Shown in pieces: positions 1-52,395 of a stretch of 64,000 nucleotides of DNA; positions within the stretch are counted from its first letter, which is position 1; every line of letters starts with the position of its first letter. The DNA is taken from contig DASXFM010000185.1 of the NCBI GenBank assembly GCA_036489615.1, positions 274 to 64,273 of the forward strand. Direction: 5' to 3'. The notes under the pieces were generated by a model that had not been told where the DNA came from, did no database searches, and saw only the letters and a list, made by a program, of their open reading frames with translations. The position numbers and the translations under genes are program-made. The DNA comes from Verrucomicrobiia bacterium. GTDB taxonomy: Bacteria > Verrucomicrobiota > Verrucomicrobiia > Limisphaerales > UBA11358.

Positions 1-2913
1 AGCGGCCTCAAGAGATTGAATGCGGACGGGCTTGGTGAGGTGGGCGTCAAACCCGGCATTCTCGCTACGAGCAACATCGTGTTCCATCCCGTACCCAGTT
101 AAAGCAATCCCGCGAAGGTGATTTTTTTTGCCGAGTTCGTTCATCAAATCGTAGCCATTGCCATCGGGCAAGCCGATGTCGGTAATGAGCAAATCGAAGC
201 TTCGACTACCCGCCAAAGCGCGCGCTTCGGCAACGGTGGCGGCAGCGGCAACTTCATAACGACGGCGCGCCAGCAGACCAGCGAGGGTCGTGCGGGTGGG
301 CTCGTGGTCTTCGACCAACAAAATGCGGATGCTTTTGGCGCCTGGACCAGCGGAAACGCTTTGCGGTGGTTTGGTCATAGCCAGATCTCCATTAGCTTCG
401 GCCGCGGCGGCCAGGGGCAATTCCACCGTAAAGGTCGAGCCCTGGTCGCGGCCAGCGCTGGAAGCAACAATTTTCCCGGAGTGTAGTTCGGTAAGTTTTT
501 GAGAAATGCTCAGGCCGAGACCCAGGCCGCCAAAGCGGTGGCCGTTGCCAGCAGCGTGATCGCCTTGCGAAAAGGCGGTGAAGATACCGGCGAGCTCCTC
601 CGGCGTCATCCCGATGCCCGTGTCAGAAATCTTCACGAGAATCTTGTTATCGCTGGAAGTAGTTTCGACAATGATTTGCCCGGCATTGGGCGTAAATTTT
701 ACGGAGTTTTTCAAAAGGTTCCAAAAGATTTGCTGGAGCCGAACGGCATCGGCATAGACGGTGTGATGAGCCGCTTTTAAACGCAGGTCGAGGCCAATCT
801 GTTTTTGGTTCATCTCTTCGCGTACCTGGGCAATGGCATCCTGCAAAGTGGAGCGAAGATTAATGGAATTCTTTTCAAGGATGATTTTGCCGCGCGCGAT
901 GCGGGTCAAATCCAACAGGTCATCAATCAGCCGCGCCTCCATCTCAACGTTCTTGCGGATGGTGTTAAAATCCGTCCGGATACGGGGCGGCAAATCGCGG
1001 TTGTTCATGGCATCGCTGGCGAGCAATAAAACGGGGTTCAAGGGCGTGCGCAACTCATGCGAGAGCGTGGCAAGAAAATCGTCTTTGGCGCGCGAAGCGG
1101 CAAGCAACTCAGTGTGGGCGCGCTTCAACTGGTGCAGGACATGTTCGCGTTCGATAGCGAAGGCGATTTGCGAGGCGATAGTCTGAGCCGGGCGCAGTTC
1201 ATCAAGGGTAAATTGATGCGGTTCGCTGAAATAAAGCATGAATTTCCCGAGCAGGCGGTTTTCGTAGGTGACGGGAATAAAAGCCAATGAGCGGATCCCT
1301 TCTGCTTCAACCACTTTCTTCAAACTGTCATCTAAATGGGCTTCAGTAAGATCATCAATCATGACGGGCTGAGGGACTTCTCCTGGTTTCCAGGGTGAAT
1401 GGCCTTCGACGGCACGACGGTAGCCTTCGGAAATGCCGCGCCAGGATTTAAAACGCATGACTCCATCGGCATCTGACAAAAGGATCGAAGCACGGTCGGT
1501 ATTCTGGCATTGAACAATGGTTTCGAGAGCAACATCGCAAATTTTATCCAACGTAGGAGCGGCGTTGACGGTGGCCACCAGTTCAAACAGTGCGCGCTGC
1601 TGGCGCTCGGTGCGCTTGCGGCCGGTGATGTTGCGGGCAATTTTTGAGGCGCCAATGATTTTCTCACTGGCATCTTTGATGGGGGAAATGGTCAGCGAGA
1701 CATCAATCAGGGTTCCATCTTTGCATTGGCGAATGGTTTCGAAGTGCTTGACTTGTTCACCACGACGGATACGGGCAAGAATATCGACCTCTTCCGTCTG
1801 AAGGTTGGCCGGGATCAACGTCATGATGGATTTGCCGATAATCTCAGAGGCTTTGTATTTGAAAATGCGTTCAGCGCCCTGGTTCCAGCTATTGATGATG
1901 CCATTAATATCTTTGCCGACGATGGCGTCATCTGAAGATTCGACGATAGCCGCAAGACGCTGAGTAACGAGTTGCGCCAGATTGCGATCGGTGACATCCA
2001 GGAGCATGTTGAGCGCGCCGGTGATCTTTCCGGAGACGTCGCGAATGAGAGTAGGATAAGGCAAAACGTTGCGGCGTTCGCCATTCGAGCGTTCAATGAT
2101 CAGTTCCTGGCCACGGACGGGCTCGCCGGTTTTTAACGTGACAGCCATGGGGCTATCAGATCCCTGTACTTCAGTTCCGTCCGGGGTATAGGCTTTAAAG
2201 ATGCCACTCCACTGGTCTTTTCCGATTTCCGGACGGCGTCCCCATAATTCAGCCGCCGCATCGTTGTAAAGGGTGACATAACCCTGGGCATCAGTAGTGT
2301 AAATGGCCACGGGCAAATTGCGGACGACCTGCTTGTAGCGCTCTTCACTGAGGCCCAATTCAGCAGTGCGTTCCTGGACACGCATTTCGAGGTCGTTATT
2401 AGCCTGTCGCAAGGCTTCTTCGGCATTCTTACGGTGGACAACTTCTTTTTCTAAAGCCTGGTTAGCGGCCGTCAACGCGCGGGCAATACGAAACAAATCC
2501 ACGAAGGCACCGACTTTGGATTTGAGGATTTCCGGATTGATGGGCTTGGTCAGATAGTCCACGGCACCGGCGCCGTAACCCATAATGATGTCCTTTTCAT
2601 CAAGGAAAAAAGCCGTAAGGAAAATAATAGGAATGTGCTGGTTGCGTTTACGGGTCTTAATCTGCCGGGCCAGTTCAAGACCACTCATGTCCGGCATCTG
2701 GATATCCAAAACGATACAGGCGAATTCCTTGTTCAGGAGGGCGAGCAACGCTTCCTCGGCGCGTAGAGCGCGGACAAGATTCACCCCGGGCATGGTCTCA
2801 AGGATGCTCTCCAGCGCGTCAAGATTCCGGCTTTCGTCGTCCACGAGCAAAACGTTGACCGGTTCAAGGCCCGGTTTTGTTTCAACATTTTTTTCAGAGG
2901 TAGCTGATTCCAT
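1..2913 (-). CDS. Hybrid sensor histidine kinase (REC-PAS-PAS-GAF-HisKA-HATPase-REC). The 3' end runs off the window.
   Basis: Hand translation of the minus strand from ATG at 2913..2911 gives 971 codons with no stop: MESATSEKNV...VLLVDDESRNLDAL..DIQMPDMSGLE (REC), two PAS-like blocks, a GAF-like block, [16 protein letters not shown] (H-box), DTGIGMTPEE..GGLGLGLSIS (ATPase), ILLVEDHEPTR..DIGLPDGNGYD (REC). It is missing from the ORF track because it has no stop inside the window. Confidence 0.85.
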   Translation of the reverse strand, partial: MESATSEKNVETKPGLEPVNVLLVDDESRNLDALESILETMPGVNLVRALRAEEALLALLNKEFACIVLDIQMPDMSGLELARQIKTRKRNQHIPIIFLTAFFLDEKDIIMGYGAGAVDYLTKPINPEILKSKVGAFVDLFRIARALTAANQALEKEVVHRKNAEEALRQANNDLEMRVQERTAELGLSEERYKQVVRNLPVAIYTTDAQGYVTLYNDAAAELWGRRPEIGKDQWSGIFKAYTPDGTEVQGSDSPMAVTLKTGEPVRGQELIIERSNGERRNVLPYPTLIRDVSGKITGALNMLLDVTDRNLAQLVTQRLAAIVESSDDAIVGKDINGIINSWNQGAERIFKYKASEIIGKSIMTLIPANLQTEEVDILARIRRGEQVKHFETIRQCKDGTLIDVSLTISPIKDASEKIIGASKIARNITGRKRTERQQRALFELVATVNAAPTLDKICDVALETIVQCQNTDRASILLSDADGVMRFKSWRGISEGYRRAVEGHSPWKPGEVPQPVMIDDLTEAHLDDSLKKVVEAEGIRSLAFIPVTYENRLLGKFMLYFSEPHQFTLDELRPAQTIASQIAFAIEREHVLHQLKRAHTELLAASRAKDDFLATLSHELRTPLNPVLLLASDAMNNRDLPPRIRTDFNTIRKNVEMEARLIDDLLDLTRIARGKIILEKNSINLRSTLQDAIAQVREEMNQKQIGLDLRLKAAHHTVYADAVRLQQIFWNLLKNSVKFTPNAGQIIVETTSSDNKILVKISDTGIGMTPEELAGIFTAFSQGDHAAGNGHRFGGLGLGLSISQKLTELHSGKIVASSAGRDQGSTFTVELPLAAAAEANGDLAMTKPPQSVSAGPGAKSIRILLVEDHEPTRTTLAGLLARRRYEVAAAATVAEARALAGSRSFDLLITDIGLPDGNGYDLMNELGKKNHLRGIALTGYGMEHDVARSENAGFDAHLTKPVRIQSLEAA

Positions 2914-2943
2914 ATGAAAAATCGGTCAACGGGTCGAAACTGA

Positions 2944-3068: not shown

Positions 3069-9626
<6,558 letters not shown>

Positions 9627-9742
9627 GATAAAATGATTCTTCGTTGCTAAAATTTATTTAACCCGTTACGTGTTGGGCGTCGCGAAATCCAGAAACCTGT
9701 GACTTCTGACATACCCAAAAGACTGATTGGGCAGTTTACAGT

Positions 9743-9758
9743 GGCAAAAAATGTGCCA
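9743..9758 (-). promoter_or_regulatory. Sigma-54 type -24/-12 promoter for the giant kinase gene
   Basis: The minus strand reads TGGCAC-ATTTT-TTGCC, an exact fit to TGGCAC-N5-TTGC. It lies about 115 nt upstream of the ATG at 9626. Confidence 0.7.
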
Positions 9759-9835
9759 GAGCGGATTTTAATTCGATTTGTTGGAAAATCCAAGGGAGGA
9801 TGGGCTTTCTGCATGATTTGAGGCTAAGAAAAATA

Positions 9836-9877
9836 TGCAAAATGCAAAAGCGTTTTGGCGCTCTATTGCAAACTGCA
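9836..9877. promoter_or_regulatory. Pair of TGCA-N3-TGCA boxes (candidate upstream activator site)
   Basis: TGCAaaaTGCA at 9836-9846 and TGCAaacTGCA at 9867-9877, 20 nt apart. They lie about 80-120 bp upstream of the sigma-54 promoter at 9743-9758. Confidence 0.45.
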
Positions 9878-9932
9878 TATATATAATATATCGGCTATAG
9901 AGTCTTAGTTGGTTTTGGCCAGTCTTCCCCAA

Positions 9933-10625
9933 CTAGATCGGCAACGAAAAGAAAAAGCAGGAACCGCCAGGTCTGGATTCGTAACCGCAAACGCCACCTT
10001 GAAGCTCGATTAATCTTTGGACGATGGAGAGACCAAAACCCTTGCCGCCTTCGGGCCGGTGCAAGGTATGGAACGGGCGGAAAAGGCATTTTTGCATTAT
10101 TTCGGGCACACCACCGCCATTGTCGCAGACCTCAAAACGATAGAGACCGTTTTCCTCGCGCCAGGTCAATTCGATGCGGGTGTTATCTGCGGTGTGCTGG
10201 ATGGCGTTCATCAAAAGGTTCCACCAAATTTCTTCAAGCCACTTGGACACACCGTTGACCTGGGGCCATGAACCGGGGTCAACAATGGTGGCATTTTTCT
10301 TAAGCGCCCGGCTTTCAACCCGTTGGAACGCCATGGCAACAGCTTCATTCATGCGCACGGGCGTTTTTGGAAGCGGTTCGGCAGAGGCGCGGGTAATAAA
10401 ACTGATTTGCTTGATCAAATGGGTCAGATCGTCCAACGAATCGGAAATTGAGTGCGTCAGCGTTACCGGCAAATTTTTTTCGGCGAGAATTTCGCGCAAT
10501 ACTTCCGTAGCCGTCATGATGCCGCCGAGCGGGGTCCGCAAATCATGGCTGACACGGGTCGCCATGGTCAACAGGTCGCCACGCAAGCGCGCATTTTCGC
10601 CCACATTGTTGAATCCATTTTGCAT
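9933..10625 (-). CDS. Small soluble histidine kinase core (HisKA + HATPase, no sensor domain)
   Basis: 230 aa. H-box TRVSHDLRTPLGGI, N-box WWNLLMNAIQH, G-boxes DNGGGVPE and GKGFGLSIVQ. No TM segment. Confidence 0.85.
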   Translation of the reverse strand: MQNGFNNVGENARLRGDLLTMATRVSHDLRTPLGGIMTATEVLREILAEKNLPVTLTHSISDSLDDLTHLIKQISFITRASAEPLPKTPVRMNEAVAMAFQRVESRALKKNATIVDPGSWPQVNGVSKWLEEIWWNLLMNAIQHTADNTRIELTWREENGLYRFEVCDNGGGVPEIMQKCLFRPFHTLHRPEGGKGFGLSIVQRLIELQGGVCGYESRPGGSCFFFSLPI

Positions 10626-10744
10626 TAGGTCATTCTCTTTCCGCCTGGTTCAGCAGGACTGTAAGCCGGACACATATTGAAATCACATTTCAGGCGCTGC
10701 CAAGCTTAATGTGCCGGCGGCGGCAGCAGTCTTGAAAGAAAATT

Positions 10745-11464
10745 TTAATGGGTCATTGCTCCGGCATTGGTTGAGATGACTTTTGCGGGCGGCTTAACAA
10801 AGATAGATGCCGGAGGCGGCATATTTCCCATATCATATTGGGGGGACCAAATCTTATATTTCTCGGCCTTTTTCGCGGTCTTCGCTTTTTCCGGAATATC
10901 GGTGGCTACCCACGAGATAAAAAGAATTTTATGATAGTCGTGATGAGCTTTGCCGATGAGGGGGCCACTGGAATAAATATGAGCCCGCGATTGGTTCACA
11001 TAAGCGAGCAAGGCAATCTTGGCATAGGAATGCTGGGTCTGCGTTTTGTAGAGTGCAATTTCGGGAATTTCAATCGGAACAGACAAGGGAATGGGAACTG
11101 ACATGTTGGGAATACCAAACAAGATCGTATCGTTGTCAATCGCCAGCGCACCGGCACGGGCCTCAATGATCACATCCGCATTGGTTTCGGTGTTAACGAG
11201 AAGAGCGCCGGCACGGAACAACGCATCACGAATTTCGCCGATGGCATATTTGGAATCGTAACTATCAAAATAGGTGGTATCCAAATAAACGGTGCGGCCG
11301 GCGAACATGTCGAGATCGACCGATGACAAAGCACGATCGGCGGAACTGCTCAGAAGGAGTTGTTCGGTGGCCGAGCGTGGCGGGTTGGTGACCAAAGAGG
11401 AGGCGCAACCGGCGGAAAAAAACGCGACGGCAAGAAACATTGCCAGAACACGCATAGGTTGCAT
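10745..11464 (-). CDS. Lipoprotein of unknown function
   Basis: The ORF is trimmed to MQPMRVLAMFLAVAFFSAGC (lipobox SAGC). The earlier ATG at 11503 would sit at or upstream of the predicted transcription start of the promoter at 11513-11528. Confidence 0.7.
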   Translation of the reverse strand: MQPMRVLAMFLAVAFFSAGCASSLVTNPPRSATEQLLLSSSADRALSSVDLDMFAGRTVYLDTTYFDSYDSKYAIGEIRDALFRAGALLVNTETNADVIIEARAGALAIDNDTILFGIPNMSVPIPLSVPIEIPEIALYKTQTQHSYAKIALLAYVNQSRAHIYSSGPLIGKAHHDYHKILFISWVATDIPEKAKTAKKAEKYKIWSPQYDMGNMPPPASIFVKPPAKVISTNAGAMTH

Positions 11465-11512
11465 TAAGATCAAAAACGAATTATTTCGCACCTCCATAAG
11501 CACAGCGCCTTT

Positions 11513-11528
11513 TGCAGGTTGTGTGCCA
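11513..11528 (-). promoter_or_regulatory. Sigma-54 type promoter
   Basis: The minus strand reads TGGCAC-ACAAC-CTGCA. Confidence 0.6.
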
Positions 11529-11551
11529 TGAATTCTTTGCCCTGCCCCGCT

Positions 11552-11755
11552 TTATCGTTTGGATGGCACGACTGCCAATATTACTCCGCAGATAGCGGAG
11601 GCAATGCCACCAAGCAAGAGCCACATGGTTTTATTGGTCGGCGTTCCATTGAACGTCCGCGAGATGGATGAGCTGGTTGAGTTTGAGGCGTCTACGCCAT
11701 AAATAATCAGGGCGATACCCACGGCGAGCAGTGCGAGTCCAATTGCTTTATTCAT
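11552..11755 (-). CDS. DUF3185-like small two-TM membrane protein
   Basis: 67 aa: MNKAIGLALLAVGIALIIYGVDASNS..SRTFNGTPTNKTMWLLLGGIASAICGVIL. This matches the pattern I recognise for DUF3185. Confidence 0.8.
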   Translation of the reverse strand: MNKAIGLALLAVGIALIIYGVDASNSTSSSISRTFNGTPTNKTMWLLLGGIASAICGVILAVVPSKR

Positions 11756-11777
11756 AATTTAATTAGGGGTTAGTTGG

Positions 11778-11939
11778 TTATCCACGGATCAAGCCAAACA
11801 CGAGGGTGGCGAGAAAGAGAATGATAAAAATAGTGAAGAGAACGCGGGCAATTCCCACGGCTGCTCCGGCAACGCCGGTGAAACCAAGCGCTCCTGCGAT
11901 GAGCGCAACAACCAAGAATATAAGTGTCCAGCTTAACAT
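11778..11939 (-). CDS. DUF1328 / UPF0391 (YtjA-like) small membrane protein
   Basis: Internal start gives MLSWTLIFLVVALIAGALGFTGVAGAAVGIARVLFTIFIILFLATLVFGLIRG (53 aa). A GGGAGG Shine-Dalgarno sits just upstream. The longer ORF-track version adds a non-homologous leader. Confidence 0.85.
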   Translation of the reverse strand: MLSWTLIFLVVALIAGALGFTGVAGAAVGIARVLFTIFIILFLATLVFGLIRG

Positions 11940-11978
11940 AAGTAGTACCTCCCGTTTTAATTTGTTAATTCCCTTATT

Positions 11979-11994
11979 AGCCCAAATCATGCCA
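11979..11994 (-). promoter_or_regulatory. Sigma-54 type promoter (weaker -12 element)
   Basis: The minus strand reads TGGCAT-GATTT-GGGCT, about 40 nt upstream of the DUF1328 ATG. Confidence 0.5.
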
Positions 11995-12027
11995 GCCCTT
12001 TCCAGGGCAAAATTCAGCTTTTTGGAA

Positions 12028-12061
12028 TGCAGAATGCAATTTTGCAGATTTGAACCTTGCA
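12028..12061. promoter_or_regulatory. TGCA box cluster
   Basis: TGCAgaaTGCA at 12028-12038, with further TGCA at 12043 and 12058. It lies 35-70 bp upstream of the promoter at 11979-11994. Confidence 0.4.
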
Positions 12062-12434
12062 TAATGTACCGGTAACGGTTCGTAGAACTAATTGGGCTGG
12101 TTATGGGAGATTTTCCTGCTGTTTAAGCGAGGTGTGGAATAGGCGGGGCGACGAAATAATCGATGTAATTCTGTTTTCTCGCGCATAAGGATATTTTTTC
12201 GCCGGACGGTAAGATTTGAGCCGGCGCGGTTGGTATAAAAACCCAGCATGGACATCGCGGATTGGAAGGGCGTTCCTTTACGACGACGGCTACGCAAGGC
12301 GGAACGTTTAGTGAAAGTGTGATCCGGCGTGCATCGCCCATGGTAAAAAAACATTTTTGCAAATCGAGCGCGTCGCAGCCATGGGCGGCAGCCGACCAAC
12401 GGCTCCCTGATCTAGCGTTCATCCTGTACCTCTA

Positions 12435-12584
12435 TTAGTGGCGTTTGAAAAACTGCACCTGGCGCTCATGACGTTTGGCGGCCTCAAGGGTTTGGAATGT
12501 ACCGAGGTTCCGGCGTTCGCCGGTTTCCGGGTTGCGTTTCCGAGAGTAAAGTCGATATCCACCGTTTTTTAGTTTACGTATCAT
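12435..12584 (-). CDS. Small basic protein, 49 aa (below the ORF-track cutoff)
   Basis: Hand translation gives MIRKLKNGGYRLYSRKRNPETGERRNLGTFQTLEAAKRHERQVQFFKRH*. It resembles a small conserved hypothetical family I have seen, but I cannot name it. Confidence 0.5.
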   Translation of the reverse strand: MIRKLKNGGYRLYSRKRNPETGERRNLGTFQTLEAAKRHERQVQFFKRH

Positions 12585-12663
12585 AAATTATTTTACGACA
12601 TCCTTATCTGCATCGTTTTTGCCAAGGACAGCGGAAAAGCTCGTATCTTCTGTGGGATAATTC

Positions 12664-12679
12664 AGCCCGAAATGTGCCA
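12664..12679 (-). promoter_or_regulatory. Sigma-54 type promoter (weaker -12 element)
   Basis: The minus strand reads TGGCAC-ATTTC-GGGCT, nearly the same as the element at 11979-11994. It lies about 80 nt upstream of the 49-aa ORF. Confidence 0.45.
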
Positions 12680-12711
12680 ATGAAATCCAAGCATAATCCC
12701 CAAAACCTAAA

Positions 12712-12746
12712 TGCAGAGTGCAATTTTTGAAGAGTTACATCATGCA
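12712..12746. promoter_or_regulatory. TGCA box cluster shared by two divergent promoters
   Basis: TGCAgagTGCA at 12712-12722, plus TGCA at 12743-12746 (20 nt spacing). Confidence 0.4.
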
Positions 12747-12827
12747 GTATCATACTTATAAATATTTAAAAACGCTGATTTTGGCTGGATTATGATGGGG
12801 ATTTAGCACTTGCGATTCGGCTAGCCA

Positions 12828-12843
12828 TGGCACTTCTGATGCT
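12828..12843 (+). promoter_or_regulatory. Sigma-54 type promoter
   Basis: TGGCAC-TTCTG-ATGCT. The -12 GC is at 12841-12842, only about 13 nt before the ATG at 12855. Confidence 0.6.
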
Positions 12844-12854
12844 GAAATAGAGTT

Positions 12855-13397
12855 ATGAAAACTAAAATTATTCTACCTATTGTCATCGCTGGCTTTTCGG
12901 CGATGTGTTACGGAGCGGGAGGAACAACGGGCGCGCCGACTGGAGGTGCATCAGCAGGAGCCAGCGGCGCTGCGGGGGCGCCGGGTGCTTCAGGAATCGC
13001 TGTGCCGGGCAATATACCAGGACCTAACGGCACTGCAGTTGGCTCATCTCCCGGAGGGCGGGCAAATCATAACGTTCGAGTGGTGCCCAGACGAATTAAT
13101 CCAAACGCTGCTGCGAACAGGCAAAATCAATTAAACACGCAGAATGGAATGAACATGCAAAATGATGTAAATGCGCGGAATGGTCAGAATGGTATCAATG
13201 GCAATGCCAACGCGAATGTAACCATCACACCAAATGCCCCCGTCAATAATGCAAACGGGACAGTCAATCGGAGTAGCACGGTGAATACACGCAGAGCGGT
13301 CAAAGCCCCGACTTATCAGCGTATTTCGCCGAACGGGAATGATGTTCCCGCAAATAACAATAATAATGCGAACAACCCACCTGATGAACAGCCTTAG
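12855..13397 (+). CDS. Secreted low-complexity (G/A then N/Q-rich) protein
   Basis: Signal-peptide-like MKTKIILPIVIAGFSAMCYGAGG, followed by GA-rich and N-rich tracts. No recognisable domain. Confidence 0.6.
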   Translation: MKTKIILPIVIAGFSAMCYGAGGTTGAPTGGASAGASGAAGAPGASGIAVPGNIPGPNGTAVGSSPGGRANHNVRVVPRRINPNAAANRQNQLNTQNGMNMQNDVNARNGQNGINGNANANVTITPNAPVNNANGTVNRSSTVNTRRAVKAPTYQRISPNGNDVPANNNNNANNPPDEQP

Positions 13398-13426
13398 AAA
13401 AAAACATCAAAAACTTATTCGGACTT

Positions 13427-13993
13427 ATGAAAACAAAAAATTTTCTTTCACTTGCTTTAACGAGCATGACCGCAATATGCAGCGGAGCTCCCGTCGGGAC
13501 AGTGGTTGGGCCAGTTCGTTCACCGACATCCGCTACCCCGGAGCCAACTACATCACAAACGCCAGGGTTGACGCTGCCCCCAGCCAGCATTCCGGCCAAT
13601 CCCAATATTAATCCGAATGTGCCTGGCGATGTTAACGGCAACGGCCGTTTTAATACTGGCTTCGCCAATACCAATTCTCTCTATTCGATCACCAATCCGC
13701 CGGGACAGGGATTTAACCAGCCGTTTGGAAATGCGCCAGGTGGTGCAATCACGCCTCAACAACCCGGCATTAATTCGCAAGTTACGCCAGGCAATACTTT
13801 GCCAACGAGAAGTTCCGCACCGGCAACGGCATCGCCGCCCTATGGCAACAATCCACTTCCAGCGACGGTTGCACCGCAGCCGGGCGTCAACTCAGTACCT
13901 CCAGCAACCACGGCGGTACCGTCAGGAGTAAATTCAATGCCACCGGCTAATACAGCAGTGCCGCAAGGCAACTCCACTCCTCTCAATCCATAA
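13427..13993 (+). CDS. Secreted low-complexity (P/T/N-rich) protein
   Basis: Signal-peptide-like MKTKNFLSLALTSMTAICSGAP, followed by P/N/T/G-rich sequence. It shares the MKTK start with the upstream gene. Confidence 0.6.
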   Translation: MKTKNFLSLALTSMTAICSGAPVGTVVGPVRSPTSATPEPTTSQTPGLTLPPASIPANPNINPNVPGDVNGNGRFNTGFANTNSLYSITNPPGQGFNQPFGNAPGGAITPQQPGINSQVTPGNTLPTRSSAPATASPPYGNNPLPATVAPQPGVNSVPPATTAVPSGVNSMPPANTAVPQGNSTPLNP

Positions 13994-14018
13994 TAAGGAG
14001 GAGCCAGATATTCACGAA

Positions 14019-14053
14019 AGACCGATGCCTGAACGGGCATGGTCTTTGTTTTT
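14019..14053 (+). terminator. Intrinsic terminator
   Basis: GACCGATGCC-loop-GGCATGGTC followed by TTTGTTTTT. Confidence 0.7.
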
Positions 14054-14063
14054 AAAAATAAAC

Positions 14064-14100
14064 TAAAAAAGCAAAAGCCGACGCTAGATGCGCCGGCTTG
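14064..14100 (-). terminator. Intrinsic terminator for the BON gene
   Basis: On the minus strand, AAGCCGGCGC-loop-GCGTCGGCTT (one mismatch) followed by TTGCTTTTTTAG. Confidence 0.6.
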
Positions 14101-14146
14101 CTCACTTCGCCTACCTTATCAATGACCGGACGGAACCGGTTCCCCA

Positions 14147-14485
14147 CTATTGATTCGATTGGACCGTGATATTGTTTTCAACATCGGTTACGCCTTGAAC
14201 ATTTTTGGTAATGTCCTTGGCCTCGGACTTTTGGTCCGAGTTTTGAACAAATCCGCTCAACTGTACGGTGCCGCGATAAACGTCGACATTCACATTGTCG
14301 AATTTATATTCAGCATTGTCTTTCAACGCGTCGTGCACTTCACGCTGCAGGGTTTTGTCATCAATGTACTGGCCAGTGCTACGGCTGTTGTCGCTCGAGG
14401 CGCAACCGGTAAAGGTGCCAACGGCAGTGGTGGTTAACAGACCCAAACAAAGGGCCAAACTTACTAATTTACTGGTGTTTTTCAT
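14147..14485 (-). CDS. BON-domain lipoprotein (OsmY-like)
   Basis: 112 aa, lipobox FTGC. DDKTLQREVHDALKDN...VDVYRGTVQLSGFVQNSDQKSEAKDITKNVQGVTDVENNITV is a typical BON domain. Confidence 0.9.
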   Translation of the reverse strand: MKNTSKLVSLALCLGLLTTTAVGTFTGCASSDNSRSTGQYIDDKTLQREVHDALKDNAEYKFDNVNVDVYRGTVQLSGFVQNSDQKSEAKDITKNVQGVTDVENNITVQSNQ

Positions 14486-14552
14486 GATGTCTCCTTTTTT
14501 AGTTGTTTTATAGTTCTACCATCTACTAACTCCTACTCCTTTGCGCTTCTTT

Positions 14553-14568
14553 AGCTCATCTCATGCCA
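14553..14568 (-). promoter_or_regulatory. Weak sigma-54 type promoter candidate
   Basis: The minus strand reads TGGCAT-GAGAT-GAGCT. The GG-N10-GC spacing is correct but the -12 element is poor. Confidence 0.4.
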
Positions 14569-14591
14569 TAGGTGTGAGAAATACATAAACG

Positions 14592-15179
14592 CTAACGGCA
14601 CAAGGAAAGGATACTGCCGGCACAACCATCCATTTCCTGGAAGGGGCCGAGCGGCCTAACGTTGCTATCTTCGCGAGAGATATCCGGTTCGCCAGAGGAA
14701 AGGGTGTAAACCACCGTATCATCTTTGATCAGGATAAGTCCTTTGAACCGCCAGCCCGATTGATGGGTCTGACGCTTGAACCCAAAGACATCCAAAACCA
14801 GGCTGCCGTGCCGCTTTTCTTTGACATTCTCCAATTCCACGAGATAGGCCTGATTGCCTTTCTTAGCTTGAACGTATATGCGAACGCCAATGGGCAAATC
14901 ATCCATATGAATATTGGGGTTTGGCATGAATATCGGCATTACATCCACATAGGGCATAATCTTAATGTTGGGGGTAACTTTGGGATCAAAACCCATGGTC
15001 TGTAAGTCAGCGATCGTAGTATGATTGGGGGCGATTTTGTTGAAGGCGATGCTGATTTGATCCCAATTTGTCCATGGCGTGAGGGTGGATGACTGGCGGC
15101 TAATAAACAGGCTTTGACAACCCGCTGTCAAAAACATCGCTCCCGTGACGATCGCTAAGATGACCACTCGCACTATCAC
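14592..15179 (-). CDS. Lipoprotein of unknown function
   Basis: GTG start with AAGGAG about 8 nt upstream. MIVRVVILAIVTGAMFLTAGC (lipobox TAGC). Confidence 0.7.
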   Translation of the reverse strand: MIVRVVILAIVTGAMFLTAGCQSLFISRQSSTLTPWTNWDQISIAFNKIAPNHTTIADLQTMGFDPKVTPNIKIMPYVDVMPIFMPNPNIHMDDLPIGVRIYVQAKKGNQAYLVELENVKEKRHGSLVLDVFGFKRQTHQSGWRFKGLILIKDDTVVYTLSSGEPDISREDSNVRPLGPFQEMDGCAGSILSLCR

Positions 15180-15212
15180 AACAATACGCTCCTTAACTTT
15201 CCAAAAATCGTT

Positions 15213-15228
15213 AGCACGTGATATGCCG
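15213..15228 (-). promoter_or_regulatory. Sigma-54 type promoter
   Basis: The minus strand reads CGGCAT-ATCAC-GTGCT. Confidence 0.55.
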
Positions 15229-15281
15229 CTAATTGTTATGCTTGATGTCCAACAACGACAATCACATCTGAAATCTTATGA

Positions 15282-15322
15282 TGCAATCTGCAAATCGTGA
15301 ATAAATCCAATTGCAGTTTGCA
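15282..15322. promoter_or_regulatory. Pair of TGCA-N3-TGCA boxes between divergent promoters
   Basis: TGCAatcTGCA at 15282-15292 and TGCAgttTGCA at 15312-15322, 19 nt apart. Confidence 0.45.
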
Positions 15323-15396
15323 AAAATAGATAGAGTGGATGAATGACAGACTTTCCCGAAACTAAGGAAATCGTTACATATTTTTTATTTGGTGAA

Positions 15397-15412
15397 CGGC
15401 ACATCGCTTGCA
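15397..15412 (+). promoter_or_regulatory. Sigma-54 type promoter pointing into a region with no confident gene
   Basis: CGGCAC-ATCGC-TTGCA, with an exact TTGCA -12 element. Confidence 0.6.
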
Positions 15413-15510
15413 AGGGAGGCGGCATCACACGAGTGAAAAATAGAAGCCAAAATAGTATCCAAAAAAAATCGACGGGTAGCTTTTTACTCTTCCGACTGCA
15501 TCAAAATCTA

Positions 15511-15663
15511 ATGAAAGCGCGCGAGATCATCAGTGACCGGGTCATACCCCTGGCGCCAAAGGGTTCCAGAAGGAATCCGAAAGGGCGTGACCTTCCTGTT
15601 CACTTTTCCATCGATACCGCGCGCGCCTTTGAAATAAAAAACTGCAACCACGAATGCCTATGA
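15511..15663 (+). CDS. Hypothetical small protein (50 aa)
   Basis: This is the first ATG downstream of the predicted start of the promoter at 15397-15412: MKAREIISDRVIPLAPKGSRRNPKGRD... No homology recognised. Confidence 0.3.
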   Translation: MKAREIISDRVIPLAPKGSRRNPKGRDLPVHFSIDTARAFEIKNCNHECL

Positions 15664-15887
15664 ATCCATTATTTCAATCCATAACTGAAAGGCCCCTTAT
15701 CCCCGGTTTATTTCAAATTGCCGCCTGCGCGGGCGGCCCGGTGCCCCAAAACCTGGGGCAGACACCGTTTGCGGATATGATGCTTAACCCCAAAAAGCTG
15801 GAGGCCATCTTAAGAACGATCGCGAGGCTGGAAAAGCCAGTCACGCGCCGCAATTCTGCTGGACGCCTTGCTAAAAGGGTACGTTAA
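15654..15887 (+). CDS. Hypothetical protein (77 aa)
   Basis: It overlaps the previous ORF by 10 nt. No homology recognised. It contains GC-rich hairpins (GCCGCC..GGCGGC, TGCCCC..GGGGCA), so it could instead be structured RNA. Confidence 0.3.
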   Translation: MPMNPLFQSITERPLIPGLFQIAACAGGPVPQNLGQTPFADMMLNPKKLEAILRTIARLEKPVTRRNSAGRLAKRVR

Positions 15888-15917
15888 GAGACCACAGAGG
15901 CCTGCCCGCACAAAAAC

Positions 15918-16454
15918 CTAATTGGAAAGAGAGGCGGTGCGATAATAGCGGTGGGGAAACTGGGTGGTATTGGAATCAACGAAATTAAAGGGCGCGACAT
16001 TCGTCTGGAGTGCAACCCAATGAACCAGATCGGTTGAGGCCTGCACAACGTACTGGGAATTGGCGGCACCGGTCACCGTAAATCCAAATTGGCCGGGAGA
16101 GGTAAGGAGCGAGGTAATCGCAGCGGCCGCCGACAAGGTTTGACCAACAACGCCGGAAATTTCAGGAGAATAACCGCTCTGGTTACCGGAACCGTCATAA
16201 GAGGTCGCCGAAAAATAGTAGGTTACGCCGCTGGTCAATCCGCGAATCGTAACGTTAGTGGCGCTGGGATTAAGAACGGAAACGGCAGAAGTATAATTGC
16301 CGCTGGAGGTGCCATAATAAATGTCATAACCGACGACATTAGTGCCTGAGCTGGGAGTCCAACTAATGGTGGCGGTTCCCATCCCCTGTGATTTCGCACC
16401 CATTGCAAATAGCAACAACCCCGCGAACGTAAAAAGAATTAGTATCCTACGCAT
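15918..16454 (-). CDS. Secreted fibronectin type III domain protein
   Basis: Signal peptide. ISWTPSSGTNVVGYDIYYGTSSGNYTS..VTIRGLTSGVTYYFSATSYDGSGNQS is an FN3 domain. The C-terminal beta-sandwich-like domain ends FPHRYYRTASLSN. Confidence 0.85.
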   Translation of the reverse strand: MRRILILFTFAGLLLFAMGAKSQGMGTATISWTPSSGTNVVGYDIYYGTSSGNYTSAVSVLNPSATNVTIRGLTSGVTYYFSATSYDGSGNQSGYSPEISGVVGQTLSAAAAITSLLTSPGQFGFTVTGAANSQYVVQASTDLVHWVALQTNVAPFNFVDSNTTQFPHRYYRTASLSN

Positions 16455-16797
16455 AACTACAATTTTTCTGTGTATCTATTTTTTAGTATTCGGAATTGCC
16501 TGAATTCCGTCGTTTGAAGGAAACAACACATGCTGCTTCCGCCCGTTTCAAACGAATCTACCGCAACAACCTTTGCAATCAACAATGCAAAATGCGGCGA
16601 GACTTTCTTAGAAAACCCGCGAAGAAAAACAATAGTGAGAAGAGAACTCCCCTTCGCCTGTCTGCTTCACCAGCTAACTAACTCTGCCTGTGATGATAGG
16701 TTATCCAGAAGGGCCTGAATTGCAAGCACTTTTTTTAGGAGAGAGCATAAAAAAGGATAAATCGTAGTACTAATTTAAAGGGCGGAAGGTAATTTTT

Positions 16798-16840
16798 TGC
16801 ACCTTGCAACTAATGCAGGCAAAAAAGTTTGCGCTCTGCA
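16798..16840. promoter_or_regulatory. TGCA box cluster
   Basis: TGCAcctTGCA at 16798-16808, with TGCA at 16814 and 16837. Confidence 0.4.
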
Positions 16841-16905
16841 TACCTTTTAGGATGCGACTTTTCGCCATTTATTCAAATTACGGGGTTTTGATCAATTTCA
16901 GGCAT

Positions 16906-16921
16906 CGGCATAGTCACTGCT
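16906..16921 (+). promoter_or_regulatory. Sigma-54 type promoter
   Basis: CGGCAT-AGTCA-CTGCT, about 50 nt upstream of the DUF892 ATG. Confidence 0.55.
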
Positions 16922-16971
16922 AAAAGAGACGTGCACGAAGGAAATATTAAAATGGGAAAAGCAATTTTGTT

Positions 16972-17484
16972 ATGAGGAAACTGGAAGATTTATTTTTGGA
17001 TGCCCTAGCGGATGTTTATTACGCAGAGCAAAAGCTGGAAAAGGCATTACCAGAAATGGCCAAGGCAGCCACCCACGATGGCTTGCGGGCGGCATTTGAA
17101 GGACATCTGACCGAGACACGTCATCACGCGGAACTATGCGAGGAAATCTTTGGACTGTTTGGGCAGAAACCGAAAGCCATAAAGTGCAAAGCTATTCTCG
17201 GCATCATTGATGAGGCAGAGGATTTAATTTCGGAAAATAAAAAGTCGCCGACCATCAACGCAGCGCTGATCCTAGGTGGCCAGAAAGCCGAGCATTATGA
17301 AATCGCATCGTATGGCACGTTGCGTGAATGGGCCAAACAGCTCCAGCGCGAGGATGCGGCGGGATTAATCGACCAAATCCTGGAGCAGGAAAAGGCCGCC
17401 GATGTCAAATTGACACGGCTAGGGCAGGAATATTGCAACTCCGCAGCCAAAAGCGGCGGTGATGATATGCGAATGGCAGCATAA
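16972..17484 (+). CDS. DUF892 / YciE-YciF-like ferritin-like stress protein
   Basis: LEDLFLDALADVYYAEQKLEKALPEMAKAA...HLTETRHH...AEHYEIASYGTL is the characteristic DUF892 pattern. Confidence 0.9.
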   Translation: MRKLEDLFLDALADVYYAEQKLEKALPEMAKAATHDGLRAAFEGHLTETRHHAELCEEIFGLFGQKPKAIKCKAILGIIDEAEDLISENKKSPTINAALILGGQKAEHYEIASYGTLREWAKQLQREDAAGLIDQILEQEKAADVKLTRLGQEYCNSAAKSGGDDMRMAA

Positions 17485-17531
17485 AAAAAATCTCCCCGGC
17501 GCGATCAACAAGCGCCATTTACCCCCCAAGT

Positions 17532-17565
17532 GGCCGGAATTTGCCTGTATTCCGGCCTTTTTTTC
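17532..17565 (+). terminator. Intrinsic terminator
   Basis: GGCCGGAAT-loop-ATTCCGGCC followed by TTTTTTT. Confidence 0.75.
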
Positions 17566-17916
17566 TCTAATGAGCGAACTCTGCAGGCGCTTAAACCTGA
17601 AAGAAAACAATCTTCTCCAAACTAGAATTAGACTTAACCAAATTCTTTTCATCCTTTTCCAAGCGGTCCAACCCTTCCTCACCCCCTGCCCTCTCCCGGC
17701 GGAAGAGGGAGAATCGCTGTCAGATGGCTGGCGTTGGCCAAGGAAAAAGTGAGTTCATAACAACAAAACGCATACTGAGAAAAGAGCAAGCGTGATGTTT
17801 CAGTCTATCATATTAAGCTTGAAACAGAGATAGAATGAGAATTTCAAAAAAATTTTGACGAATGAAGTTTTAGAGTTAGAGTGACGGTGGAAAAAAGGAG
17901 TTTAGAAAAAGCAGCT

Positions 17917-18615
17917 ATGAAAAATATAATTTATTCACACCTATTCTTAAAGTTTTCAGTATTAACCGTTGCGGCCGTAGCATTGGCCGGCTGCCGCACG
18001 TCACAATATTATGACGCAAGTCCGACAACTGCCACAACGGCGCCAAAACAGGCAGCCACACAAACGGCACTGGACGATTGGGCCACACCGCAGACGGATT
18101 CCGGATCTTCACAGCCGCAAGCAACTGTCCTACGCCAGGGGGATACCGTCAAGGTAACGTTTCCGGGATCTCCCAATCTCAACCAAACCGAACAGATTCG
18201 ACTGGATGGAAAAATTTCTTTGCCGCTGGTGGGTGACGTCCAGGCCGCTGGCCAGACCCCGGATGGGCTGGAACAGAGCCTAGTCAGGCTGTATGCGCCG
18301 CAGCTTTCATCAAGCGATGTCACGGTGGCCATCGAATCATCATCTTTCCCGGTATTCGTAACCGGCTGTGTTTTAGCACCCGGGCGCGTTTTATCCAACC
18401 AACCATTAACGGCACTGGAGGCGATTATGGAGGCAGGCGGGTTTGATTACGCACGAGCAAACCTGAGAAACATCCACGTGATCCGCCGCGATAATAATTC
18501 CTCGCAAAGTTATGTTCTGGATCTCAAGAGTGTTTTGAACGGAGACGAAAAAAATAATTTTTACCTGCAGCCGAATGACATCGTATACGTACCGGAAAAA
18601 TTTTCCTGGTTCTAG
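17917..18615 (+). CDS. Polysaccharide export outer-membrane lipoprotein (Wza-like: Poly_export + SLBB)
   Basis: Trimmed to the ATG giving MKNIIYSHLFLKFSVLTVAAVALAGC (lipobox). LRQGDTVKVTFPGSPNLN..IRLDGKISLPLVGDVQAAGQTP..L and ..NDIVYVPEK are typical. Confidence 0.9.
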   Translation: MKNIIYSHLFLKFSVLTVAAVALAGCRTSQYYDASPTTATTAPKQAATQTALDDWATPQTDSGSSQPQATVLRQGDTVKVTFPGSPNLNQTEQIRLDGKISLPLVGDVQAAGQTPDGLEQSLVRLYAPQLSSSDVTVAIESSSFPVFVTGCVLAPGRVLSNQPLTALEAIMEAGGFDYARANLRNIHVIRRDNNSSQSYVLDLKSVLNGDEKNNFYLQPNDIVYVPEKFSWF

Positions 18616-18626
18616 TAAATGACATG

Positions 18627-18664
18627 GCTTTGTGAACTGGGTTCCGGTTCACAAAGCTTTTTTC
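18627..18664 (+). terminator. Strong intrinsic terminator after the Wza-like gene
   Basis: An 11-bp stem GCTTTGTGAAC/GTTCACAAAGC, a 9-nt loop, then TTTTTT. Confidence 0.85.
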
Positions 18665-18808
18665 TCTTCGCAGTGCGGTTCATGTAACAGCTTTCTTCGC
18701 AGCGTTCCCGAAGTCTTCCGCCGACATTAGGCAAAGTAAGAAAGAATTTTTGCCAGAAATTTTCCGAATCATATTACAGGGAAATTGTTTTTACTTATTA
18801 AAGATTTT

Positions 18809-18834
18809 TGCAAGTTGCACACAAAAAAGTTGCA
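18809..18834. promoter_or_regulatory. TGCA box cluster at the head of the EPS operon
   Basis: TGCAagtTGCA at 18809-18819, plus TGCA at 18831-18834. Confidence 0.4.
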
Positions 18835-18936
18835 AATCGCCTTTGCGTGACACATAGCACAACGGTTTTTAGAAGTAACTGTGAGGAACTATGGCAAAAC
18901 TCAATTGGCATATTTCTTGTTAATGCAGTTCCGCGA

Positions 18937-19512
18937 ATGAAAATGGAGGCACAAGCACAAAACCCGGCGTGGTACTGCGCCAGGACAAAACCGAAGCACG
19001 AGCACATCGCGGCGGCGACGTTGCGGAAGAATCTCGGTTTGGAAGCTTTCCTGCCACGGCTGAGGGTAGAACGTGCCACGCGGCGCGGGCCGGTAAATAC
19101 CATTGAACCCCTTTTCCCCTGCTATGTTTTTGTGCGCTGCGTCATTGATGAAAGGCTTGATGAAATCAAGCACGCGAATGGCGTGAGCAGCCTGGTGAGG
19201 TTCGGCGGAAGAGTTTCCATGGTGGAAGACTCGATTATCGAAGAACTTCAAGATTGTTTTGAGGCGGATGAGCCCATGACGGTGGAACATCGCCTGATGC
19301 CCGGCAGCGAAGTATCGGTGGCCGGGGGCGCGTTTGATGGAATGCGCGCACATGTATTGCGGAACCTGCCGGCAAAACGGCGGGTGCAGGTTTTGCTGGA
19401 TATTTTAGGACAACCGACGCCAGTGGAGGTGGATCGGAGTGCAGTGATACTGATGGAAGACACCGTGGCGCATCTGGCGCCCGTGCTGGCGCGTGCGACC
19501 GTGCGCGTTTAA
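18937..19512 (+). CDS. NusG/RfaH-like (UpxY-like) transcription antitermination paralog
   Basis: WYCARTKPKHEHIAAATLRKNLGLEAFLP..EPLFPCYVFVR is an NGN domain. GSEVSVAGGAFDGMRAHVL is a KOW-like motif. The start is trimmed to MKMEAQ. Confidence 0.85.
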   Translation: MKMEAQAQNPAWYCARTKPKHEHIAAATLRKNLGLEAFLPRLRVERATRRGPVNTIEPLFPCYVFVRCVIDERLDEIKHANGVSSLVRFGGRVSMVEDSIIEELQDCFEADEPMTVEHRLMPGSEVSVAGGAFDGMRAHVLRNLPAKRRVQVLLDILGQPTPVEVDRSAVILMEDTVAHLAPVLARATVRV

Positions 19513-47997: not shown

Positions 47998-48954
47998 ATG
48001 TCCGTCAAAGAACTCAAATTACGCGCAGAGAAAAATCAGTTCGCCTTTGAAGCCATCGTATTAAAGCGAAAGAAAAATTTCGCCCGGCTGGCGGGATTTT
48101 CCCTGGCTGTATTAGCACTGGCCCTGTGTTTCAGCCGGCCCCTGTATAATTTGTTTGGGCTGGTAACCAGTGACGACCTGTACACGGACATTCCGCTCAT
48201 TCCGCTTATCAGTTTGTATCTTATTTGGATACGCCGTGAAAATTTGCCATTTTCGCTTCATACGGCGATCAAGCCTACGGCACTGTTTTCCGCAGCCGGA
48301 CTGATGATCCTGGCGGCCTATTGGGCCACAGCGCAAAACGCCTCGTGGACAATAGAAAATTACCTGGCAATCAACGTCCTGGCCTTGCTGCTTATCTTTA
48401 CCGGCGTTTGCTTTTTCTTCTTTGGGAAAGCTTTTATGAGTGCCATCGCGTTTCCCATGGTACTGCTGGTCTTTACCATCCCGTTCCCGGATTTTTTGCA
48501 GCATGGATTTGAAACTTTTTTACAATATGGATCAGCAATCTGCGCCGGGACGTTTTTTCATCTTTCCAGCGTACCGGTTTTTCGGGATGGCCTTAATTTT
48601 AAAATTCCAGGGTGCGTCATCCAAGTCGCCCCCGAGTGCAGCGGCATCCATTCCACGCTGGTCCTAGCAATCACGAGCTTGATCGGCGGCTGGCTCTTTT
48701 TACGTTCACCATGGAAGCGCACGGTGCTGGCACTGGCAGTCATACCCTTGGCGCTAATCCGAAATGGTTTTAGAATTTTTGTGATTGTCCGGCTATGCGC
48801 CGCCTATGGGCCAAAGATGCTGGCTTCGCCGATCCATCACCACGGGGGACCGTTGTTCTTTGCTTTGTCCCTGATTCCCTTCTTTCTGCTTTTGCTTTAT
48901 CTGAGAAAAACTGAACGGATAAATAATGAACCTTTAGCTAAAAAATCGTTATGA
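47998..48954 (+). CDS. Exosortase (EpsH / XrtA-like)
   Basis: Polytopic membrane protein with the VAPECSGIHS (catalytic Cys), ALIRNGFRIF (Arg) and later His motifs typical of exosortases. Confidence 0.95.
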   Translation: MSVKELKLRAEKNQFAFEAIVLKRKKNFARLAGFSLAVLALALCFSRPLYNLFGLVTSDDLYTDIPLIPLISLYLIWIRRENLPFSLHTAIKPTALFSAAGLMILAAYWATAQNASWTIENYLAINVLALLLIFTGVCFFFFGKAFMSAIAFPMVLLVFTIPFPDFLQHGFETFLQYGSAICAGTFFHLSSVPVFRDGLNFKIPGCVIQVAPECSGIHSTLVLAITSLIGGWLFLRSPWKRTVLALAVIPLALIRNGFRIFVIVRLCAAYGPKMLASPIHHHGGPLFFALSLIPFFLLLLYLRKTERINNEPLAKKSL

Positions 48955-52160: not shown

Positions 52161-52323
52161 GTCGTTTCTCGTGTAAGTTTTCGGAAAAATGTCGGCGGAT
52201 TTTACGGTGCCAAAAACGGTAATTCTCCTTTAGAATCAAGGGTCTCAACAAATTTTCTAAAACACGTCGGTAAAATTTACGATCCAGTGTTAAAACTGAT
52301 TCAAAATCCCGCACAAAACCTAG

Positions 52324-52339
52324 TGGCACTCCCTATGCT
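52324..52339 (+). promoter_or_regulatory. Sigma-54 type promoter of the PEP-CTERM protein gene
   Basis: TGGCAC-TCCCT-ATGCT, about 57 nt upstream of the ATG at 52396, with an AAGGAG Shine-Dalgarno in between. Confidence 0.7.
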
Positions 52340-52395
52340 TTAGATAAAAACTGACGATTGCAAAATACAAGGAAATCGAACAAGGAGTATGTAGT

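Follow-up and report, generated by a model that had tools for sequence, protein, structure and literature searches.

The window analyzed here is a stretch of 64,000 nucleotides (64 kb) from a Verrucomicrobiia bacterium (GTDB lineage Limisphaerales, UBA11358; GenBank assembly GCA_036489615.1, contig DASXFM010000185.1, positions 274 to 64,273 of the forward strand), and the element in question is a short box, TGCA-N3-TGCA, that recurs upstream of candidate sigma-54 promoters. Verrucomicrobiota are abundant in soil, and to our knowledge almost nothing is known about their gene regulation. Among the closest described arrangements is the NtrC enhancer at enteric glnAp2, where activator dimers bind at two sites near -108 and -140, a separation of about three helical turns. 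Two boxes before a giant kinase gene in the window are centered at -109 and -140, a sigma-54 promoter candidate follows downstream, and dependence on the helix face is a further likeness. The NtrC site itself is different, being TGCACC-N5-GGTGCA, a 17-bp repeat with conserved outer bases, whereas the box cores here are 3 nt apart, not 9, and the genes downstream are unconcerned with nitrogen assimilation. Those genes are reminiscent of the general stress regulons of RpoS (E. coli; osmY, yciE/F, ytjA), SigB (Bacillus; csbD) and EcfG (Alphaproteobacteria). Gene content overlaps in hallmark members of these regulons, BON/OsmY, DUF892/YciE-F, DUF1328/YtjA and CsbD, but those regulons need alternative sigma factors of the sigma-70 family, whereas the promoter candidates here are of the -24/-12 type that requires an ATP-dependent activator.

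In sequence, the box matches the site of LuxO. With one more base at either end it becomes a 13-bp inverted repeat, TTGCA-N3-TGCAA, and 46 boxes of relatives give the consensus T(.82)T(.91)GC[A/G]NNNTGCA A(.80). The LuxO consensus TTGCA-N3-TGCAA is ascribed to Lenz et al., 2004 (PMC3352281), and LuxO sites are placed upstream of the sigma-54-dependent Vibrio qrr small RNA (sRNA) genes (Lenz 2004, Tu & Bassler 2007; PMC3352281, PMC10328515). Sites recovered by chromatin immunoprecipitation sequencing (ChIP-seq) of V. cholerae LuxO include ttgcaaaatgcaa (qrr1), ttgcaatttgcaa, ttgcattttgcaa and the weak ttgcaaatcgcga (PMC10328515); ATGCAAAATGCAA, at 9835-9847 of the window, is one base off the qrr1 site, and the half-box TTGCAAATCGCCT at 18830-18842 matches the weak site in its first 11 of 13 bases. 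Since the full 13-mer is identical to the LuxO consensus, the novelty is not in the motif but in the phylum that uses it and the genes it serves; in the literature that was searched, no account of such a regulon in Verrucomicrobia was found. An earlier, sequence-only reading of this DNA had likened the half-site to that of NtrC at another spacing. The difference in spacing holds, as none of the eight boxes fits the NtrC arrangement, but a comparison with NtrC alone falls short, the 13-mer being that of LuxO.

The two systems share boxes upstream of -24/-12 promoters and hybrid histidine kinases in the circuit (LuxN, LuxQ and CqsS for LuxO, the giant kinase and a second kinase here). They differ in that the predicted targets here are protein-coding stress, signaling and exopolysaccharide (EPS) genes rather than Qrr sRNAs, in that the host is a soil Verrucomicrobium and not a Vibrio, and in size, the predicted regulon being much larger than the five LuxO sites of one V. 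cholerae ChIP-seq study (PMC10328515). Rfam gave no match in the window at gathering scores and none at E up to 1 within 9600-19000, and no Qrr; no LuxU-type Hpt protein was found.

A third system is present in the same window, at 48951-54471. The PEP-CTERM box is a 17-nt motif that ends in TTTACA and is in some cases repeated, with a spacer of 32-92 nt before the -24/-12 elements (Haft et al. 2006, PMC1569441). Together with PrsR-PrsK-PrsT it resembles the present case in tying an activator box and a sigma-54 promoter to an EPS/exosortase locus, but its 17-mer, which ends in TTTACG in the window, is absent from the TGCA boxes, and the targets of the TGCA boxes lack the PEP-CTERM tails of its own. 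The TGCA box is enriched in the window, coupled to -24/-12 promoters and conserved in relatives, and very probably serves as an enhancer (upstream activating sequence) for an NtrC-family sigma-54-dependent activator with the DNA specificity of LuxO.

Boxes and promoter candidates of the window

Exact matches to TGCANNNTGCA (TGCA-N3-TGCA) number eight, at 9836, 9867, 12028, 12712, 15282, 15312, 16798 and 18809, the same copies as the sequence-only reading had listed by eye. In 100 dinucleotide-preserving shuffles the mean is 1.69 copies and the highest count 7; none reaches eight. With gene models built from open reading frame (ORF) lists, Pfam/NCBIfam scans and comparison with relatives, all eight boxes fall, as that reading had it, in intergenic DNA within about 9 kb (9.6-19 kb), in six regions: 9627-9932, 11943-12087, 12585-12854, 15180-15342, 16455-16971 and 18616-18937. 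Over a total of about 1.7 kb, which is 2.7% of the window, these regions carry 29 of its 43 intergenic TGCA tetramers; other intergenic regions of similar G+C have 0-2 TGCA each and no box. The flanks are A/T-rich and an A follows six of the eight boxes, in agreement with the earlier description, and both of the box-N19/20-box pairs that it pointed out are seen (9836/9867 and 15282/15312). A weight matrix derived exclusively from the boxes of other genomes returns these eight sites as the top eight matches in the window, each with at least 15.5 bits.

A chance or compositional effect of A/T-rich, TGCA-rich intergenic DNA deserves almost no credence. It draws on the low G+C of the box-region intergenic DNA (only 36-40%), on a TGCA frequency 2.4 times that of coding DNA in the window and on the lack of enrichment of the pattern when one mismatch is allowed, as TGCANNNTGCA then gives 40 matches where 35.6 are expected, which is noise level; the enrichment resides in the exact form of the box. 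The shuffles and the box-free intergenic regions of similar G+C speak against such an effect, and it is refuted because both the position and the sequence of the boxes persist between genomes in which the DNA around them has diverged, as described below.

Sigma-54 promoters were scored with a simple weight matrix made from the TGGCACG-N4-TTGCW consensus, at a threshold of 9.5 bits. There are 36 such matches in the window, 18 of them within 9600-19000, which is 15% of its length, while sigma-70-type matches in the box region show no enrichment (12 against 11.8 expected). All eight boxes have a downstream sigma-54 match of at least 10.6 bits on one or both strands. The gap from box to -24 element is 33 to 109 nt, close to the 35-120 bp proposed from the sequence alone, and box centers lie at -64 to -140 relative to the start site deduced from the -12 element. 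The box-to-start distances tend to place the boxes on a single helix face (10.5-bp period, R=0.66, approximate p 0.003, in a test in which the members of box pairs are not independent). In 12585-12854 and 15180-15342 the boxes are flanked by divergent promoter candidates, and these are the two cases of boxes between divergent promoters that had been noted before. The boxes and promoter candidates are listed here by target, with box centers given relative to the deduced start sites.

9836..9846: giant-kinase proximal box TGCAAAATGCA, center about -109; orthologous boxes kept in the related contigs L023, L204 and L209
9867..9877: giant-kinase distal box TGCAAACTGCA, center about -140, 31 bp from the proximal box; kept in L023, L204 and L209
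9743..9758, minus strand: giant-kinase sigma-54 candidate TGGCACATTTTTTGCC, 14.4 bits; TGGCAYATTTTYTGC conserved in L023, L204 and L209
12028..12038: DUF1328-operon box TGCAGAATGCA, center about -65
12051-12061: degenerate partner box TGAACCTTGCA of the DUF1328 operon, center about -88
11979..11994, minus strand: DUF1328/DUF3185 sigma-54 candidate TGGCATGATTTGGGCT, 11.2 bits; the identical 16-mer precedes DUF1328 in L204 and L209
12712..12722: box TGCAGAGTGCA between divergent promoter candidates; orthologous pair in L209 at 876/901, spacing 25 bp
12736-12746: degenerate partner TACATCATGCA of box 12712
12664..12679, minus strand: sigma-54 candidate TGGCACATTTCGGGCT for the 49-residue gene and DUF3175, box center at -64
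12609-12624: second sigma-54 candidate on the side of the 49-residue gene and DUF3175
12828..12843, plus strand: sigma-54 candidate TGGCACTTCTGATGCT for the secreted low-complexity proteins, 14.6 bits, box center at -137; identical or near-identical 16-mer in L204 and L209
15282..15292: box TGCAATCTGCA in a divergent control region, center at -85 to the minus-strand and -136 to the plus-strand promoter candidate
15312..15322: box TGCAGTTTGCA, 30 bp from box 15282, center at -115 to the minus-strand and -106 to the plus-strand promoter candidate
15213..15228, minus strand: sigma-54 candidate CGGCATATCACGTGCT for the lipoprotein and BON genes, 10.6 bits; counterpart CGGCATATCACATGCT in L204
15397..15412, plus strand: sigma-54 candidate CGGCACATCGCTTGCA, 14.7 bits
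16798..16808: DUF892 distal box TGCACCTTGCA, center at -129
16830..16840: DUF892 proximal box TGCGCTCTGCA, of the TTGCG type (TTGCG-N3-TGCAA is usual in relatives), center at -97
16906..16921, plus strand: DUF892 sigma-54 candidate CGGCATAGTCACTGCT; CGGCA and TGCT invariant in 11 aligned genomes
18809..18819: NusG-like/EPS-operon box TGCAAGTTGCA, center at -118; kept in L004, L204 and L207
18831-18841: half-degenerate partner TGCAAATCGCC of box 18809, center at -96
18906..18921, plus strand: sigma-54-like promoter candidate TGGCATATTTCTTGTT with GT for GC at -12, 10.7 bits, before the NusG-like and sugar transferase genes

The genes around them, with one further promoter candidate, are as follows.

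1..2925, minus strand: REC-PAS-PAS-GAF-HisKA-HATPase-REC hybrid kinase gene that leaves the window at its left end; the full-length copy P0121 has 981 residues
3069..9626, minus strand: giant hybrid histidine kinase of 2185 residues, in which Pfam finds about 12 HAMP domains, GAF, HisKA, HATPase and three receiver domains; synteny conserved
9933-10625: short histidine kinase of 230 residues (Pfam)
10745-11503: DUF6655 gene (Pfam)
11513..11528, minus strand: sigma-54 candidate TGGCACACAACCTGCA before DUF6655 and the short kinase, 15.7 bits
11552-11755: DUF3185 gene (Pfam)
11778-11942: DUF1328 gene (Pfam)
12088-12399: DUF3175 gene
12435-12584: gene for a 49-residue protein
12855-13397 and 13427-13993: secreted low-complexity protein genes
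14147-14485: BON-domain gene
14592-15179: lipoprotein gene
16972-17484: DUF892 gene
18938-19512: NusG-like gene

The candidate at 9743..9758 would drive the giant kinase gene and probably also the hybrid kinase gene that follows, which is probably co-transcribed with it; over the latter (1-2925, minus strand) the mechanical ORF list gives only short spurious ORFs. The likely target of the candidate at 15397..15412 is a conserved gene for a 77-residue protein (15654-15887), a homologue of which lies downstream of the boxes and promoter in L004. A 106-residue ORF at 15343-15663 on the plus strand is probably not a gene, because this candidate lies inside it; if the promoter is real, a leader of about 230 nt before 15654, over 15423-15653, is left unexplained. 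Two other sigma-54 matches, at 14553-14568 (minus strand, 11.4 bits, before the BON gene) and at 54920-54935 (minus strand, 15.6 bits, inside a coding region), have no TGCA box within 200 bp.

Conservation of boxes and promoters in relatives

Scanning one genome per species with the DUF892 protein (16972-17484) gave about 30 loci in metagenome-assembled genomes of the Verrucomicrobiia/Limisphaerales, at 59-85% identity, and about 50 loci from other phyla that were used as a control (48 counted). A distal box, a proximal box and a promoter precede DUF892 in 27 of the 28 usable Verrucomicrobiia loci, whereas one control locus of the 48 has a box within 300 bp, and box density per 64 kb is 7.4 in the Verrucomicrobial loci versus 1.5 in those of other phyla. 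The common layout is a distal TTGCA-N3-TGCAA, a proximal box that mostly reads TTGCG-N3-TGCAA, and a promoter CGGCAY-N5-TTGCT, with the proximal box 30-33 bp downstream of the distal one (20-22 bp in three loci). Proximal centers lie at -96 to -98 in most loci and otherwise at -86/-87 or at -106 to -111; these classes are about one helical turn apart, and insertions and deletions thus appear to be tolerated mainly in one-turn steps.

The DUF892-upstream regions of 11 genomes were aligned with MAFFT, as gapless anchoring on the promoter misaligned the boxes through shifts of 1-2 nt, and the invariant columns of this alignment are almost confined to the two boxes and the -24/-12 elements. About 45-55 nt upstream of the promoter, at about 16880-16895 in the window, an A/T tract (..AATGCC..TTTT) is also partly conserved; it lies downstream of the proximal box, before the promoter, and may be a site of bending or of the IHF type.

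Other targets show the same pattern. Upstream of the giant kinase gene, the boxes and TGGCAYATTTTTTGC are conserved in L023 and the remainder has diverged; upstream of the NusG-like gene, L004 retains the box, the half-box GTTGCAAATCGC and TTGGCAYATTTCYTGTTAAT, and keeps the promoter at 18906..18921 as TTGGCACATTTCCTGTTAAT despite diverged flanks. The box pair 15282/15312 has orthologous pairs in L204 (5682/5712) and L004 (1279/1311), and in L204 and L209 the DUF1328-operon promoter is the same as in the window, with boxes at -64 and -89. Before the DUF1328 gene of L012, two degenerate boxes, centered at -127 and -97, are followed by TGGCATGAGTTTTGCA. The syntenic contigs L204, L207 and L209, to which homologues of the short and hybrid kinases led, together contain 25 exact boxes, 24 of them intergenic, located upstream of the NusG-like and DUF892 genes, in the lipoprotein/BON divergent region, and upstream of DUF1328 and the giant kinase gene; several of their promoter 16-mers match those of the window base for base. 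Loss of the boxes from the orthologous intergenic regions of relatives, which the sequence-only reading had named as evidence against its proposal, is not seen, the boxes being at orthologous positions. As these regions conserve both boxes and promoter, the enhancer interpretation is supported, and the claim that these are sites of enhancer-binding proteins before sigma-54 promoters is backed by promoter association, conservation upstream of DUF892, retention in synteny and near-absence from the DUF892 loci of other phyla.

By analogy with NtrC and LuxO we infer how the boxes work, from activator binding and looping to control by an inducing signal. Each regulated promoter would have two boxes, usually about 30-32 bp apart and 20-25 bp in some, with the proximal box centered at about -64, -86, -97 or -107 from the start given by the -24 GG/-12 GC promoter. 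Phosphorylated activator dimers would occupy both boxes and form an active AAA+ ring, a DNA loop would bring the ring to the sigma-54 holoenzyme at the promoter, and ATP hydrolysis would open the promoter.

Several points weigh against this interpretation. Box pairs are not independent in the helical-phasing test, the start sites are all deduced from sequence, and some promoter candidates are weak or atypical, with a -12 element that reads GGGCT, AGCT or TGTT; the candidate at 12828-12843 would yield an almost leaderless mRNA. No box lies within 200 bp of the candidates at 11513-11528 and 14553-14568, both of them good sigma-54 matches, and one promoter class has a box spacing of 24-25 bp, a non-integral number of helical turns. 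The rpoN gene is not in the 64-kb window, no activator gene was found beside any target in the window or in about 35 related loci, and GAFTGA scans of 30 related loci gave one recurrent activator orthogroup (L027, L030, L032), with no boxes nearby.

Genes for an OmpR-type response regulator (226 residues) and a PAS histidine kinase (about 390 residues), possibly a PhoB/PhoR-like pair, lie directly upstream of the DUF892 boxes in L005, L007-L009, L011, L014, L016, L019, L027, L030 and L031; as a candidate regulator of the boxes the pair was set aside, its position being judged synteny only. It does lend some weight to the idea that the boxes bind a regulator other than an enhancer-binding protein, such as a repressor, an OmpR-type or an architectural protein, with the true activator acting from elsewhere or from solution, and so do the failure to locate a cognate activator and the box pairs spaced 24-25 bp apart. 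We consider this very unlikely. The boxes are the sole conserved upstream element, at canonical enhancer distance and with insertions and deletions in one-turn steps, their sequence is the proven site of the enhancer-binding protein LuxO, and the OmpR/PAS-kinase pair is missing from the cluster in the window. Moreover, the sites of OmpR-family proteins are direct repeats that recur about every 10-11 bp, whereas the box is a 13-bp inverted repeat.

Candidate activators and double boxes elsewhere

The sequence-only reading held that the regulator of the boxes could not be identified in the window. In effect this stands, as their activator was not found, but one activator gene, prsR, had been overlooked. 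It belongs to a cluster at 48951-54471 that encodes PrsT, a VPDGG-CTERM protein and PrsR, next to an XrtC-like exosortase at 47998-48954.

52191-52207 and 52266-52282: PEP-CTERM-box-like 17-mers GTCGGCGGATTTTACGG and GTCGGTAAAATTTACGA, ending in TTTACG; the second ends 41 nt before the promoter candidate
52324-52339: sigma-54 promoter candidate of the CTERM gene
52396-52986: PEP/VPDGG-CTERM gene, between prsT and prsR
53110-54471: PrsR sigma-54 activator gene, TIGR02915 score 598 bits (cut-off 502.6)

Since PrsR is encoded in the window, the genome does use sigma-54 activators. The idea that PrsR itself binds the TGCA boxes, such that one PrsR regulon would take in both the stress genes and the EPS/exosortase locus, is helped by its score above the TIGR02915 cut-off and by its location in that locus, the first operon of which (NusG-like, 18938) has a box. 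We nevertheless regard it as highly improbable. The CTERM gene adjacent to prsR (52396-52986) has a sigma-54 promoter candidate and the 17-mers listed above, in a layout that agrees with the published description of the PEP-CTERM box, but no exact TGCA box upstream, and because PrsR has such sites of its own elsewhere it is probably not the protein that binds the TGCA boxes; it probably serves the box at 52191-52282 instead. Haft et al. 2006 (PMC1569441) reported the PEP-CTERM box only for Proteobacteria. The helix-turn-helix of PrsR, ..LSRPTLYELMGKLGI, is also unlike the ..SSTLYRKMKKYGI of activators encoded beside double TTGCA-N3-TGCAA boxes in metagenome contigs.

Other searches for the predicted LuxO-like activator were negative. 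No LuxO orthologue was found with NCBIfam NF041946 (cut-off 800 bits) among the activators scored, PrsR of the window scoring 345.6 and the activators of L030 and L032 scoring 369 and 367, and a sequence search of PDB for the LuxO DNA-binding domain matched only NtrC, ZraR and Fis-type domains. The recurrent NtrC-family orthogroup of L027, L030 and L032 was rejected as a candidate; its members, 2-5 kb away from DUF892, sit in housekeeping surroundings (ispF), with no boxes near and no specific family match. The flanks of the conserved kinase cluster in relatives contain glycosidases, a PEP-CTERM protein and trehalose-type genes, and no activator.

A metagenome scan for two perfect TTGCA-N3-TGCAA 13-mers gave a mixed result and did not reveal a Verrucomicrobial activator. 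In some Bacteroidetes-like contigs an activator with the recognition helix SSTLYRK adjoins the double box; the corresponding helix of LuxO probably reads PSTIYRK. Six contigs of 44-50% G+C, two of them from human gut (L102, L121, L160, L180, L149 and L156), have a double box about 0.7-0.8 kb from an NtrC-family activator gene, the helix-turn-helix of which reads ..NVNSSTLYRKMKKYGI; small helix-turn-helix or excisionase-like genes follow the box, and these contigs may contain a mobile-element regulatory module with the same DNA specificity. Elsewhere, a double box and a sigma-54 promoter precede NifX-like (Nitro_FeMo-Co type) genes (L092, L100, L098, L162, L164), kdpA-kdpB (L175, L197) and DUF1328 (L153). 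With the double box and sigma-54 promoter present in other lineages, LuxO-type specificity would thus be widespread. High-G+C contigs such as L132, L155, L185 and L202, among others, contain (TTGCAAA)n 7-bp tandem repeats, which match the pattern trivially and are unrelated to promoters.

Predicted regulon and its meaning

Judged by the placement of boxes and promoter candidates, the targets in the window appear to be the giant poly-HAMP hybrid kinase and the second hybrid kinase, DUF1328 and DUF3185, the 49-residue protein and DUF3175, the two secreted low-complexity proteins, the lipoprotein and the BON/OsmY-like protein, the 77-residue protein, the DUF892/YciF-like protein and the NusG-like protein at the head of the EPS locus; DUF6655 and the short kinase possibly belong to the regulon as well. 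In relatives the same box-promoter module precedes genes for CsbD-like and BON proteins, a trehalose-synthase-like glycosyltransferase, PqiA-like proteins and DUF1328. From this hallmark stress-gene content we infer a sigma-54-driven regulon, which looks like a general or osmotic/desiccation stress response. In fungi, poly-HAMP kinases act as osmosensors, and by that analogy the giant kinase would fit such a response. The cluster of three kinases (short, giant and hybrid) is conserved in several Verrucomicrobiia (L204, L207, L209, L023), and as the kinases are themselves predicted targets, the circuit probably has positive feedback. It is possible, and we propose it only tentatively, that Limisphaerales-type Verrucomicrobiota run their stress response through sigma-54 and a LuxO-like activator fed by a phosphorelay, not through RpoS, SigB or EcfG, with the kinase cluster as both sensor and target and with the EPS locus co-activated.

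It is the regulon and the phylum, more than the mechanism, that make these findings of interest. Two TTGCA-N3-TGCAA boxes with a -24/-12 promoter constitute a testable cis-regulatory code, from which the regulon can be read in genomes of uncultured organisms. The recognition sequence of LuxO is not special to Vibrio quorum sensing, and activators in several phyla appear to share its specificity. The arrangement suggests that an ATP-dependent sigma-54 switch, silent until activated, here controls proteins which other phyla place under RpoS, SigB or EcfG. It also links these stress-type proteins with exopolysaccharide synthesis and with the giant poly-HAMP kinases as sensors; if this is true, a shared activator would couple matrix production to stress.

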